A stretch of DNA of 64,000 nucleotides from Trueperaceae bacterium. Its GTDB lineage: Bacteria > Deinococcota > Deinococci > Deinococcales > Trueperaceae. Below are positions 1 to 3,217 of this stretch, piece by piece. The stretch spans positions 160,001 through 224,000 of the forward strand of contig JAXHLW010000001.1 in NCBI GenBank assembly GCA_034521815.1, read 5' to 3'. A program made the translations under genes and the position numbers. The notes under the pieces are model-generated. The model was not told where the DNA came from. It worked only from the letters and a program-made list of their open reading frames with translations, and ran no database searches. Numbering within the stretch: the stretch's first letter is position 1; each line of letters opens with the position of its first letter.

Positions 1-585
1 CGGGCGCACCGGGGTCATGCGATTCCGGCGGACGAGTATCGCTACACCTTGTCGCTCTTCGTGCTGGAACCGCTCCGCTGGAACGAGCGGTTCGGCTGGC
101 GACCCCTGAGCGAGGTCGAGCGGCAGGCCGGGTTCCACTTCTGGCGGGAAGTCGGACGCCGCATGGGCATCCCCGACCTGCCGCCGTCGCTAGCCGCGAT
201 GGAGGACGAGAGCCGGGCGTTCGAGGAGCGCAAGGTGCGGTTCGACCCGGTCAATCGCAGGCTGCTCGACGTCACGATCGACCGCGTGCTGGCGCGCTCG
301 CTTCCAGGTCCGCTGCGCCGGCTGGGCGCTGGGGCGGTGCACGTGCTGTTCGACGACGCCACGCGGGCGGCGTTCGGCGTCGGCACGCCGCCGGCGGCCC
401 TCCGGTGGGCCGTTCTCGGCGGTCTACGAGCGCGAGCGGCGGCGTTGCGGCGCCTCCCTGCGCGGCGCGAGCCGGTCGGGCTGCCGTCGCTGCCCAGCCA
501 TCCCGGCGGCGTCGATTGGGACCGCGTCGGGCCGGACCTGCCCGAACGCGAAGCGTCGGCACGATCGTCGTCGCGGGACGCCTGA
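1..585 (+). CDS. MpaB/DUF2236 oxygenase-family protein, 5'-truncated by window edge
   Basis: Frame is open from base 1 (RAHRGHAIPADEYRYTLSLFVLEPLRW...FWREVGRRMGIPDLP), resembling DUF2236/MpaB proteins. Confidence 0.75.
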   Translation, partial: RAHRGHAIPADEYRYTLSLFVLEPLRWNERFGWRPLSEVERQAGFHFWREVGRRMGIPDLPPSLAAMEDESRAFEERKVRFDPVNRRLLDVTIDRVLARSLPGPLRRLGAGAVHVLFDDATRAAFGVGTPPAALRWAVLGGLRARAAALRRLPARREPVGLPSLPSHPGGVDWDRVGPDLPEREASARSSSRDA

Positions 586-692
586 GCCTGGACCCGGTCG
601 TGCGCGCCGGGCGCCTCCACGACGAGGGCGACACGGTGCGGCTCGCCGGCCGGGGACGGGAAGGGTCGCTCACGTACGGCGTCCGCGCGCCG

Positions 693-701
693 TGCTAGCG
701 T
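693..701 (+). promoter_or_regulatory. Extended -10 promoter (TG-c-TAGCGT)
   Basis: TGCTAGCGT matches the TANNNT -10 pattern used across the window and lies directly before the structured element. Confidence 0.5.
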
Positions 702-704
702 GGT

Positions 705-866
705 GCACGGCAAGCCGAAGGAGCGTGAAAGCCGATCTGACGACCCTGTAGTGCGAGTACGACCGAACGAGCCCTCGCCGCGGCGAGCCGCTCGGAAGGT
801 CCTGCTCTCGCGTGAAGGTTCTGGCGACGGCGCTGACGGTTGGGCCCCTCGCGGCCAACGTCGTGC
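705..866 (+). ncRNA. Candidate rod-shaped structured RNA (6S-RNA-like, or a cis-regulatory leader)
   Basis: Nested hand-paired helices 705-711/860-866, 714-717/852-855, 731-734/828-831, 742-745/817-820, 751-757/807-813, 761-764/798-801, 768-772/790-794, 774-779/782-787; G-U pairs favour the + strand. Confidence 0.5.
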
Positions 867-924
867 TCGCGTTTCCCCTCGCGCATCGCTGAACGTCCTC
901 GCACCCGCGTCACCGGCCGACGTC

Positions 925-1800
925 ATGAGACGTGTCCCCACCCCCAAACGAACCTCCTCGCGTCGCGCATCCGCGACGTTCCGGATCGTCCCGACCGCGC
1001 TTCGTCACACGGCGAGCATCGTGCGCATCGTCCGTCGCGCGCACGCCGTCGACGACGACGAGCTCTGTCTCAGCTGCCCCACCTCCGCGATGGTGCGTCG
1101 GCAGATTCGACGGTTCCCCGAAGGCCAGTTCGTCGCGGTCCGTGGCGAGGGCGACGACGAGCGCGTGCTGGGCGTGGCGGTGCTGATGCGCACCGATCGC
1201 CCGCCCAGCGCCGAGCCGAAGTCGTGGCTCAGCATGATCGGCGGCCTGGGCCTGCGGAATCACGAGCCGAACGGACGCTGGCTGTACGGGGTCGAGACGG
1301 CCGTCGATCCGGACGCTCAGGGCCAGGGCGTGGGCAGCGCGCTGTACCGGCGCCGGCTGGAGCTGGTCCGCGAGCTCGGCGTGGAGGGGATGTACGCGGG
1401 CGGCATGCTCAAGGGCTACCGCCGGTTCCGGGACCGCATGACGCCCCTCGAGTACGCCGAGCGCGTCCGGAGCGGCGAGCTCGTGGATCCCACGGTCACG
1501 ATGCAGCTCCGTCGTGGGTTCCAGGCGGTCGGCGTCATCGAGAACTACGAGGACGACGAAGAGGCGGGGAACTGCGCCATGCTGATCGTCTGGCGGCCGG
1601 AACAGGCGGAGGCGGGCGGTTCCGAGGGACGCGTGGCCGCTGCCCCAGCCGGCTCCGAGCGGCGCTCCACGAGCCCGCTGGGGACGCGGCGCAGCGGCGG
1701 GGCCGTCGGGTCGCGCACCGGGTCGAAGGGGTCGCGCACCGGCGCGAAACGGGTACCCGCCGTGGTGCCCGCACGGTCCGACCCGGACTCGGCGAGCTGA
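925..1800 (+). CDS. GNAT-family N-acetyltransferase (YkwB/YhcX N-terminal type)
   Basis: FPEGQFVA, LYGVETAVDPDAQGQGVGSALY (acetyl-CoA motif A), DPTVTMQLRRGF; start taken at ATG 925. Confidence 0.8.
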   Translation: MRRVPTPKRTSSRRASATFRIVPTALRHTASIVRIVRRAHAVDDDELCLSCPTSAMVRRQIRRFPEGQFVAVRGEGDDERVLGVAVLMRTDRPPSAEPKSWLSMIGGLGLRNHEPNGRWLYGVETAVDPDAQGQGVGSALYRRRLELVRELGVEGMYAGGMLKGYRRFRDRMTPLEYAERVRSGELVDPTVTMQLRRGFQAVGVIENYEDDEEAGNCAMLIVWRPEQAEAGGSEGRVAAAPAGSERRSTSPLGTRRSGGAVGSRTGSKGSRTGAKRVPAVVPARSDPDSAS

Positions 1801-1822
1801 CCGCTCGGTTCCCGACCGCCGT

Positions 1823-2401
1823 TCAGTCGTCGTCCGCCTTGAAGCGCTCGATCGCGACCACGCCGCCTGGGAGAAGCAGGTGCGTCATCCGTACGTCGTG
1901 ACGCTCGCAGGGAAGCTCGTGCGCGACGAGCGCCGGGTGCGCGACGCCGACGCGCGGCGTGCCTGGGCGGAGCAACGGTAGCCAAGCATCGTAGTAGCCG
2001 GCGCCGTGACCCAGCCGAACCCCCGTGCGATCGAACGCCAGGCCGGGGACCAGCACCAGGTCGATCGCCGTCGGATCGACGCGAGGGGCGTCGGCCGCTG
2101 GCTCCATCATGCCCATGGCGTGCTGCCGAAGCGCGCCCCCGATGCGATGGAAGCCGAGAGGCCCCCCGGCAGGATCCACCCGCGGCACCACGAAGACCCG
2201 GTCGTCGCCCAGCAACCGGCCCAGATCGGCTTCGCTCCCGAACGCCAGGTAGCTCGCCACGGTCGAGGCGGCCGCGTACGTCGGCCAGCGTCGGAGGACC
2301 TCGACCAACGCGGTCGACCACGCCCCGGTGTCCAGGTCGCGGCGCGTGCGTCGGGCCCAGCGTCGCCAGGCGGCTTTGTCGGTCGGGGCGTCGCGATGCA
2401 T
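1823..2401 (-). CDS. ygfA: 5-formyltetrahydrofolate cyclo-ligase
   Basis: DLVLVPGLAFDRTGVRLGHGAGYYD signature; N-terminal KAAWRRW helix. Confidence 0.9.
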   Translation of the reverse strand: MHRDAPTDKAAWRRWARRTRRDLDTGAWSTALVEVLRRWPTYAAASTVASYLAFGSEADLGRLLGDDRVFVVPRVDPAGGPLGFHRIGGALRQHAMGMMEPAADAPRVDPTAIDLVLVPGLAFDRTGVRLGHGAGYYDAWLPLLRPGTPRVGVAHPALVAHELPCERHDVRMTHLLLPGGVVAIERFKADDD

Positions 2402-2476
2402 CGACGGCGAGCGTATCGCGCTCGCCTGGTCGTGGGCGCGACCCGTGGCCTGGGCGAAGAGGGTCATCCTCTCGGC

Positions 2477-2935
2477 ATGGCACGAACCACGGAAACGACC
2501 GTCCACCACCTCGTCGACAAGCGATTCGTCGGCATCACGCCCGACGGCATGCGCGTCATGATCGACGGCGAGAACGAAGCGCAGACCGGCATGCGGCCGA
2601 TGCACCTGTTGCTGAACGCGGTCGGCGGCTGCGCGGCGTACGACATCGTGGCGATGCTCGCCAAGCGGCGGCTCGAGGTGCGCTCGTACACGATCGAGCT
2701 CGTCGGCGAACGCGCCGACGAGACGCCGAGCCCGTTCACGAAGATCCGCGCGCTGCATCGCTTCGACGTGCCGGGGCTCGACGAGCGGACCGCTCGCCGC
2801 TTCGCGGAGCTGGGCATGACGAAGTACTGTTCGGTCGCTGCGAGCCTGAAGGCCGAGATCGAGGTCGAGGTCGAGCTGCTGCACGATCAGCTCGAGTCGG
2901 GCGCCGAGCCCGGCAGCGAGTCCGACGACGCCTGA
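2477..2935 (+). CDS. OsmC/YhfA-family protein
   Basis: RPMHLLLNAVGGCAAYD and KYCSVAASL two-Cys pattern. Confidence 0.85.
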   Translation: MARTTETTVHHLVDKRFVGITPDGMRVMIDGENEAQTGMRPMHLLLNAVGGCAAYDIVAMLAKRRLEVRSYTIELVGERADETPSPFTKIRALHRFDVPGLDERTARRFAELGMTKYCSVAASLKAEIEVEVELLHDQLESGAEPGSESDDA

Positions 2936-2971
2936 TCGGCCGGCCCGTCGGACGGCTCGGCTCGCTCGCGC

Positions 2972-3217
2972 TCAGGCCTGCAGCGGGCCGATCTGACCGT
3001 CCGGCTCGCTCTCGCCGGCGTGGCCGGCGGCGTAGCCGTTCTGGAGTCCCATCAGGTAGCCGAGCTTGAGCATGAACAGCAGCGTGTCGGCGTCGCCCTC
3101 GGCGATCCGCTCGGCGACGAACTCCCGAGTGCCCTCGGGAAGCTCCATGGCGTCGATCTGCTGGGCGTTCCGGGCACGCATCTCGTTCAGGAAGGCTCGG
3201 ATCGTCTCTTTGCTCAC
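2972..3217 (-). CDS. ddrH: DdrH-like Deinococcota small protein
   Basis: 81 aa; MELPEG...GDADTLLFMLKLGYLMGLQNGYAAG resembles Deinococcus DdrH as recalled; -10 TAGGGT 6 nt before the GTG. Confidence 0.6.
   Translation of the reverse strand: MSKETIRAFLNEMRARNAQQIDAMELPEGTREFVAERIAEGDADTLLFMLKLGYLMGLQNGYAAGHAGESEPDGQIGPLQA

Follow-up and report, generated by a model that had tools for sequence, protein, structure and literature searches.

The window analysed here is a 64,000-nucleotide (nt) stretch of a Trueperaceae genome (contig JAXHLW010000001.1, positions 160,001 to 224,000 of the forward strand) with a G+C content of about 70%. Near its start, a gap at 586-924 separates an MpaB/Lcp-like gene, which ends at 585, from a gene of the GNAT family. 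In the genus of the window this GNAT gene stands alone, and the next gene is a convergent 5-formyltetrahydrofolate cyclo-ligase gene. An earlier note, made from the letters alone, had placed an RNA of about 160 nt in the gap and had offered two identities for it, a divergent 6S-like RNA or a switching leader for the GNAT gene. The flagged RNA is a real structured element. We consider it likely that 693-927 comprises the promoter and 5' leader of the GNAT mRNA and that this leader acts in cis as a two-state regulatory RNA of the riboswitch type. The coordinates of the features are collected in Table 1.

Folding of 700-870 on the plus strand with RNAfold gave a single long irregular rod of −77.0 kcal/mol, a structure that makes up 0.19 of the ensemble. 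In this minimum free energy (MFE) fold, closing stems at 700-711/860-870, 713-717/837-841 and 722-726/830-834 lead to an inner stem (751-759/803-811) flanked by CUGUA (746-750) facing GUGAA (812-816), then to an internal loop in which GAA (765-767) faces GGAA (794-797), and finally to a terminal hairpin (768-794); a small hairpin forms at 843-846/853-856. Of the long irregular rod that had been paired by hand, the computed pairs recover the closing stems, both internal loops (the GUA/GAA-type loop and the GAA/GGAA loop) and the terminal hairpin. The energy of the rod is ordinary. Shuffled sequences folded with a mean of −73.6 kcal/mol (standard deviation 4.6; z = −0.73), 46 of 200 shuffles folded at least as well as the native sequence, and the minus strand gave a z of −0.37. 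The absence of a fold-energy advantage had been named in advance as a point that would speak against an RNA, and it also counts against the reading we favour. Because the fold energy is no better than that of shuffles, the case for the RNA rests on genome comparison.

When 41 relatives were searched at the DNA level, the region was recovered from two species of the same genus and, less strongly, from two further genera; in each case the similarity sets in close to the proposed promoter and extends as far as the start of the GNAT gene. Five sequences spanning 714-842 were used to build a covariance model, R1. This model matched 74 of 128 Trueperaceae genomes, spread over 22 of the 36 genera and nearly always with one copy each, and 52 of the 79 Trueperaceae genomes of good quality. 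In an even sample of the phylum it matched 8 of 12 Trueperaceae genomes, and the other three Deinococcota families (138 genomes) gave 1/82, 0/48 and 0/8, none of them convincing; the lone match outside Trueperaceae, 77 nt long at 24.7 bits (E = 0.007), was taken as chance. A scan of metagenome contigs with a 17-base pattern yielded 80 fetched loci, 17 of which carry the RNA by R1, the others being chance matches of the 17-mer without the RNA by the same model. A search of genome contigs with a single GNAT protein returned eight loci, among them only one from a close relative. As far as searched, the RNA appears to be restricted to Trueperaceae. The remark in the earlier note that no known riboswitch consensus could be recognised was borne out with cmscan against Rfam (4227 families), which at permissive thresholds matched no family in the window or in 12 diverse homologous loci; the sole overlapping match, Bp1_684, scored 18.1 bits where the gathering score is 44 (E = 0.82) and was set aside as noise. 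The choice of the plus strand as the RNA strand was also correct: R1 scores 141.9 bits there and 28.4 bits on the minus strand, and G-U pairs are conserved, with U-G at one P4 pair in 72 of 73 distinct rows.

The RNA is closely linked to the GNAT gene. Of 75 RNA copies, 72 are followed on the same strand by a GNAT homolog, and the remaining three loci (260-488 nt long) are cut by a contig edge; in all 72 judgeable loci the GNAT gene is directly 3' of the RNA. A GNAT match was obtained in 84 of the 128 family genomes, including all 74 that bear the RNA, and the RNA is absent from every one of the 44 genomes that gave no GNAT match. The GNAT gene was matched without the RNA in ten genomes. Two of these have the gene at the start of a contig, and two show only a weaker match that looks like a paralog; remnants of a decayed leader are present in another three (G005, G002 and G067), and the last three, which belong to a single genus, have an unrelated sequence upstream of the gene. 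Judged by this linkage, the RNA is the leader of the GNAT gene and not a free-standing RNA, and R1 provides a marker for the GNAT operon in Trueperaceae genomes and metagenomes.

We then examined base pairing in two alignments. The core alignment, fitted to R1, holds 90 copies in 73 distinct rows. In the rod core 88.0% of cells pair, compared with 30-45% when the partners are slid, and 119 cells are changed on both sides against a shuffle mean of 47.3, a count that none of 500 shuffles reached. The MAFFT alignment of the full leader holds 65 distinct short leaders, 13 longer leaders having been excluded; here 89.6% of cells pair (37-47% when slid) and 15 pairs are changed on both sides (shuffle mean 8.8; 1 of 500 shuffles reaches this number). 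Covariation is concentrated in the closing stem P0, in P2, at the base of P4 and in the terminal hairpin. In P0, which is helix 1 of the MAFFT alignment, both-sided changes occur at five of six pairs, with the window offset there by about three columns, and relatives carry AAACGG/CCGUUU, AAGACGA/UCGUCUU or AAACGA/UCGUUU in its place. Conservation is strong elsewhere: 54 columns reach 95% conservation or more across 70 distinct rows of other genera, and P3, P4 and the loops are nearly invariant. The conserved loops are the 5x5 internal loop, a 3x4 loop and a one-sided bulge of 6-9 nt, the first and the last being the largest. The 5' untranslated region (UTR) of the GNAT gene thus contains a conserved structured domain whose secondary structure is backed by covariation in 90 sequences, decisively answering the concern that the element might have no homologs.

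The conserved shape is a three-way junction and not a plain rod. The rod is present as one arm, together with a variable hairpin and the closing stem, in which the very 5' end of the leader meets a segment some 150 nt further on, and this junction was recognised, by reading of the folds, in the MFE folds of 7 of 10 independently folded regions from several genera. At the position of the third arm, the relatives' folds show a hairpin of variable sequence, the alignment there being too poor for pair counts. The longer version of this hairpin in the window had been taken for an alternative structure that excludes the closing stem; the conserved alternative pairing instead uses 876-883 and 898-904, outside the RNA as originally delimited. 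Other readings of the conserved blocks were discarded. A conserved upstream open reading frame (ORF) from the GUG in GGAGCGUGA was dropped on reading the sequences, its frame relative to the conserved blocks differing between genera. Pairing of GGGAGG in the 3' loop with UUUCCC of the pyrimidine block was rejected by eye, as GGCUGG and GGCCGC variants occur without a compensating change, and a kink-turn reading of the GAA/GGGA loop was rejected by eye against the kink-turn consensus. The leaders of some genera (L066, L054, L070, L055, L078, L090 and L098) contain 100-400 extra nt and retain the conserved blocks, the additional nucleotides either enlarging the variable hairpin arm or separating the I block from the start hairpin. 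In L098 about 680 nt separate the motif from the GNAT gene, and the motif is without its usual inner part.

Table 1. Features of the GNAT leader and adjoining genes (positions in the window; P0 to P6, helices of the leader; H and I, blocks of the alternative pairing; J, start hairpin)
Feature	Position	Strand	Basis or remark
Extended −10 promoter element TGCTAGCGT	693..701	+	Read in the sequence; conserved box
P0, 5' strand, GCACGGC	705..711	+	Pairs with 860-866; MFE fold
Conserved aptamer-like rod, R1 span	714..842	+	141.9 bits
Invariant GGAGCGUGA	720-728	+	Within the rod
P2	732-734/828-830	+	Mapped from model
P3	740-745/817-822	+	Mapped from model
5x5 internal loop	746-750/812-816	+	Mapped from model
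P4	751-758/804-811	+	Mapped from model
P5	762-764/798-800	+	Mapped from model
GAA/GGAA loop	765-767/794-797	+	Mapped from model
P6 and variable terminal hairpin	768-794	+	Mapped from model
Variable hairpin arm of three-way junction	835..862	+	MFE core 843-846/853-856; longer version 835-843/855-862
P0, 3' strand, GUCGUGC	860..866	+	MFE fold and helix 1 of MAFFT alignment
H, pyrimidine-rich block, half of anti-aptamer	873..883	+	876-883 can pair with 811-818
I, CUCGCAC, other half of anti-aptamer	898..904	+	Complementary to 751-757 (GUGCGAG, P4 5' strand)
J, inner stem of start hairpin	907-911/919-923 (907..923)	+	Directly 5' of start codon; mapped to window
GNAT-family gene	925..1800	+	Start ATG 925; Pfam PF00583, E 2.9e-06
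5-formyltetrahydrofolate cyclo-ligase gene	1823-2884	−	PF01812; next gene, convergent with GNAT

Downstream of the junction, the H and I blocks can pair with both strands of the rod core. The target of H comprises the 3' side of the 5x5 loop and the start of the P3 3' strand, and I forms seven standard pairs with the 5' strand of P4 in the window. In relatives, the H-equivalent helix (A5 columns 155-161/262-268) pairs in 90.8% of cells, with a change from A-U to G-C at one pair in six sequences. The I helix pairs in 97.1% of cells, compared with 7-52% when slid, and changes on the I side always keep the pair. Taken together, the 16 pairs of H and I are formed in 94.5% of cells (23-60% when slid), and variation on the side of the tract is almost all pair-keeping (G-C to G-U, U-A to U-G, and A-U to G-C in the six sequences). 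When window 703-945 was forced into either state, the rod folded at −93.3 and the alternative at −92.9 kcal/mol, the unconstrained fold reaching −94.1 kcal/mol. For the 65 leaders, the median difference of alternative minus rod was −1.4 kcal/mol and 51 were within 4 kcal/mol, a calculation in which the window and L025 are both in the wrong register, MAFFT having misplaced their I block. Five of nine unconstrained whole-leader folds adopt the alternative. These mutually exclusive pairings make up an expression platform. The H-I tract, at a median of 37 nt, consists of 39% C and 11% G, compared with 29% G for the whole leader, and whether this tract is single-stranded is the clearest difference between the two states. 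The suggestion of a switching leader is well supported by this conserved, nearly isoenergetic alternative pairing and by the position of the RNA directly upstream of the GNAT gene, on the same strand, at every judgeable locus.

The 3' end of the leader is also structured. The start codon lies in an internal loop of a conserved hairpin, J, whose helices pair in 89% and 96% of cells. Its inner stem (helix 8) pairs in 96.2% of cells in the 65 leaders and is present in nine of nine whole-leader folds. No Shine-Dalgarno sequence was seen before the GNAT start in the leaders inspected. The conserved start reads ATGAGRGG and is preceded by ACGTY; ACGTYATGAGRGG is kept at this point, and the protein N-termini diverge beyond the third codon. 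By this conservation ATG 925 is the true GNAT start. In the window an ORF that begins at GTG 700 and ends at 1800 (366 amino acids) is in frame with the gene and open throughout, and the region could for that reason be taken as an N-terminal extension of GNAT. We see practically no prospect for that explanation. The extension to GTG 700 is not conserved, the open frames of relatives often span 241-248 amino acids, which is the GNAT protein alone, and ATG 925 is conserved with its surrounding context. Across copies the length of the element ranges from 116 to 167 nt in steps that are not multiples of three, and conservation tracks base pairs and not codons. The GNAT reading frame should not be extended to GTG 700 in annotation. 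As the frame at 700-1800 (+) is open across the whole RNA element, gene callers may annotate a false extension that masks the leader.

Upstream of the leader, the extended −10 promoter that had been read in the sequence was supported by conservation: a TG[C/G]TAnnnT box precedes the R1 match in 85 of 91 copies and lies 21-26 nt upstream of it in 83. Transcription is predicted to start at about 705-709, a few bases past the −10 box. Consensus scans of 400-1200 found no full two-hexamer sigma-70 site and no terminator. Metatranscriptome contigs from one study cover 723-840, 811-937 and 719-1060, starting at 719-723 at the 5' side, and the contig at 719-1060 bridges the leader into the coding sequence; 600-692 is covered by DNA runs and has no RNA. 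Such contigs carry no transcript ends or levels, and they hint, weakly, at a transcription start near 700-720 with transcription continuing into the GNAT gene. One RNA-library contig from run X18 (depth 133.6) joins 773 to 874 and omits 100 nt, its shorter side being only 23 letters; this joint may reflect a relative's sequence or an assembly artefact. In three loci of one genus (L058, L092 and L094), a perfect palindrome of the C5-G6 type, CCCCCGGGGGG, is located between a TTGCC-like −35 box and the extended −10 element, and might serve as an operator through which a DNA-binding regulator adds a further layer of control to the RNA switch.

These observations can be assembled into a model. Transcription would begin just past the extended −10 box, and the first 165 nt or so would fold into a three-way junction composed of the closing stem made by the 5' end, the near-invariant rod, which is the presumed sensor, and the variable hairpin. 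The C-rich and G-poor H-I tract, complementary to both strands of the rod core, could then pull the rod into an alternative long helix. With so small an energy difference between the two folds, an effector whose binding contributes a few kcal/mol could choose between them. The effector may be a small molecule, and regulation would turn on whether the single-stranded pyrimidine tract, as a site of ribosome loading or of Rho entry, is exposed or buried. On an mRNA without a Shine-Dalgarno sequence, a C-rich single-stranded tract could serve as an S1-mediated landing site for the ribosome, or it could be a Rho entry site; Rho-controlled riboswitches have precedents in the Mg2+ riboswitch of mgtA and the flavin mononucleotide riboswitch of ribB.

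Several observations weigh against this model, in addition to the ordinary fold energy of the rod. P3 and P4 are nearly invariant and show little covariation, so they have no say either way, and the covariation counts are inflated by sequence kinship and by alignments that are in part fitted to the model. Much of the support for the anti-aptamer consists of one-sided G-C to G-U changes, and its both-sided changes do not exceed those of shuffles (305 of 500). The predicted accessibility of the start region is the same in the two forced states (0.41 and 0.40); hiding of the start region was rejected as the readout on this ground, and folding alone does not explain the output step. An intrinsic terminator was rejected as the expression platform, only 9 of 71 leaders passing a lax hairpin-plus-U test. 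Not every GNAT ortholog keeps its leader, which is decayed or missing in G002, G005, G067, G017, G132 and G134. With respect to the ligand considered below, the GNAT protein is more like CurA-type GNAT-like decarboxylases than known polyamine acetyltransferases, and an amine oxidase was not found in the genome of the window, which is 83.5% complete.

The genes that accompany the leader in other genera bear on its possible effector. A flavin amine oxidase gene directly follows the GNAT gene in 56 of 75 loci, and in one further locus it was seen with a longer flank. The nearest solved relatives of this oxidase include LSD1/2, spermine oxidase, plant polyamine oxidase, N1-acetylpolyamine oxidase and putrescine oxidase. 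In two annotated neighbourhoods class-III aminotransferase genes come next, in one of them with a cupin gene, and one of these aminotransferases exceeds the NCBIfam cut-off for gamma-aminobutyric acid transaminase. PotB- and PotC-like permease genes are transcribed divergently, with a PotA-like ATPase gene nearby; a PotB-like gene is divergently upstream in 26 of 32 loci with enough flank. Outside the genus of the window, the operon context reads as polyamine uptake and catabolism. Because of this gene context, our best guess for the effector is a polyamine or a related amine. For the window copy the polyamine link is borrowed from other genera, since the oxidase is missing from what is available of its genome, and the genus has lost the rest of the operon. 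The GNAT protein itself was modelled by AlphaFold 2 with a pLDDT of 93.3; its closest solved structures are the GNAT-like domains of CurA, GphF and SxtA (TM about 0.67), followed by arylalkylamine N-acetyltransferases, and no NCBIfam model was found for it. In its most specific form, the proposal would make the leader a second class of polyamine-sensing riboswitch, unrelated to the first, in which the ligand locks the aptamer and thereby frees the C-rich ribosome-landing or Rho-entry tract, to govern a catabolic operon of acetylation plus oxidation. In this full form the proposal is tentative and, in our estimation, rather doubtful.

Most genomes contain a second GNAT gene a few kb away whose product is about 40% identical to the first, for example at L224:8583-9209 (−) and L223:18617-19408 (−). 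Its neighbours in G013 are PotBC-like permease genes on one side and, on the other, genes that encode a Uma2-family protein, a C45-family acyltransferase/hydrolase and a PotA-like ATPase. Because R1 matches about once per genome, this second GNAT gene has no copy of the leader.

The leader and its two folds could also be put to use by a different kind of effector, namely a protein or other macromolecule (an RNA-binding regulator, GNAT itself or a ribosomal component) that binds the invariant loops. Long invariant stretches such as those in P3, P4 and GGAGCGUGA typically occur in protein-binding leaders too, there is no ligand to which the RNA can be assigned with certainty, and the distribution is confined to one family. 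Set against this, no candidate gene for an RNA-binding protein travels with the leader in the two annotated neighbourhoods, and a three-way junction with conserved internal loops and an anti-aptamer is the usual anatomy of metabolite riboswitches. We regard a macromolecular effector as unlikely, though it deserves serious consideration. The near equality of the two folds would also suit a sensor of a general physical or ionic condition, such as temperature, Mg2+ or bulk polycation, that shifts the balance between them; the closing sections of PMC10853860 stress that polyamines and Mg2+ alter RNA folding broadly. The 54 near-invariant positions, many of them in loops, exceed what a thermometer or a charge sensor needs, and the association with one gene is specific, making such a sensor improbable.

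The remaining explanation is that the RNA is an independent small RNA, including a 6S-like decoy for RNA polymerase, that merely lies upstream of the GNAT gene. A 6S RNA has a large central bubble that mimics an open promoter and is situated between a long closing stem and a terminal stem. Our element shares with 6S RNA (RF00013) a length of about 160-180 nt, a rod with internal loops, its own conserved promoter and a single copy per genome, and one RNA-library contig covers just 723-840. The 6S slot of this genome is formally open, as RF00013 gave no match at E <= 1 anywhere in the 83.5% complete assembly while control genomes do match. However, the element itself was not matched by any 6S family at E <= 10 when window 1-3000 was searched with cmscan in E-value mode, and it has no bubble resembling an open promoter, its conserved loops being the 5x5 and 3x4 loops and the 6-9 nt bulge. 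Its presence tracks one neighbouring gene, which is not the distribution of a housekeeping RNA, and most species of its own genus are without it. No conserved terminator separates RNA and gene; conservation and pairing continue unbroken to the start codon, and an RNA-library contig bridges into the coding sequence, so that the element is continuous with the mRNA. The divergent 6S-like RNA of the earlier note is therefore abandoned, and an independent small RNA of any kind is very improbable. In proteobacteria the 6S RNA gene is classically found just upstream of a 5-formyltetrahydrofolate cyclo-ligase gene. The Rfam search gave no 6S match upstream of the cyclo-ligase gene in the window or anywhere in the genome. 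The ORF called for this gene probably overstates its real extent, because the cyclo-ligase domain spans only residues 174-338.

Compared with the general class of metabolite riboswitches whose expression platform is translational or Rho-dependent, the leader has the same location in a 5' UTR, a multi-helix sensor closed by a stem that includes the 5' end, invariant loop nucleotides and a downstream competitor for pairing. It differs in that the competitor pairs with both strands of the sensor core and not with one strand of the closing stem, in that Rfam holds no match, and in that there is no Shine-Dalgarno sequence to hide at the start codon. To our knowledge, one polyamine riboswitch class has been validated so far. 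No match to the SAM clan was found in the window or in the 12 homologous loci at permissive thresholds. The spermidine riboswitch is described as a variant of SAM-I with a four-stem architecture that switches off the biosynthesis genes speE, speB and ldcC by transcription termination, and its authors state that additional classes “remain to be discovered” (Salvail et al., 2023; PMC10853860). The GNAT leader shares with it the property of being a bacterial cis-acting leader and, if the polyamine assignment is right, the ligand family and a tie to polyamine metabolism. In contrast to that riboswitch, the fold is unrelated, the associated genes serve uptake and catabolism, and there is no conserved terminator; neither the SAM-I four-stem architecture nor the association with biosynthesis nor the terminator platform is found here. 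The ldcC, potE and odc1 orphan motifs (PMC5737381 and PMC8632094) are likewise candidate cis-regulatory RNAs that adjoin polyamine genes, but they occur in other phyla and with other gene partners, namely decarboxylases and transporters.

No description of the element was found in literature searches on Truepera, Deinococcus-Thermus, polyamine riboswitches and structured noncoding RNAs. Term look-ups in the main texts of PMC5737381, PMC11109978 and PMC8632094, whose supplementary motif lists could hold it, likewise gave nothing. We think that the leader probably represents a new riboswitch-type class, restricted as far as searched to Trueperaceae, and it has the looks of an undescribed riboswitch. 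If a polyamine is indeed the ligand, a leader of an uptake and catabolism locus would be the natural counterpart to the SAM-I variant that turns biosynthesis off, and it would open a test of how an RNA discriminates a polyamine from the general polycation background. Irrespective of its ligand, the element stands as a well-defined orphan among structured RNAs: there are about 90 examples, 54 positions are near-invariant and the two-state design is clear. RNA family libraries cover its phylum poorly.

The copy in the window departs from the family at 6 of the 54 near-invariant positions, one of the departures being a C-C mismatch in P3, whereas 51 of the 70 other distinct rows depart at none. 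Among the ten other genomes of its genus, seven are without the RNA and six are without both the RNA and the GNAT gene, and two sister species carry decayed leaders. This pattern suggests ongoing loss of the element in the genus, and we regard the window element, from its sequence, as a real but atypical member of the family that is possibly eroding. Decayed leaders were located at L217 (in G005), L218 (in G002) and L219 (in G067). In G005 the leader still has its promoter and continues for about 45 nt into the motif before it diverges, and the model aligns only its two ends, with 4 nt replacing 94.

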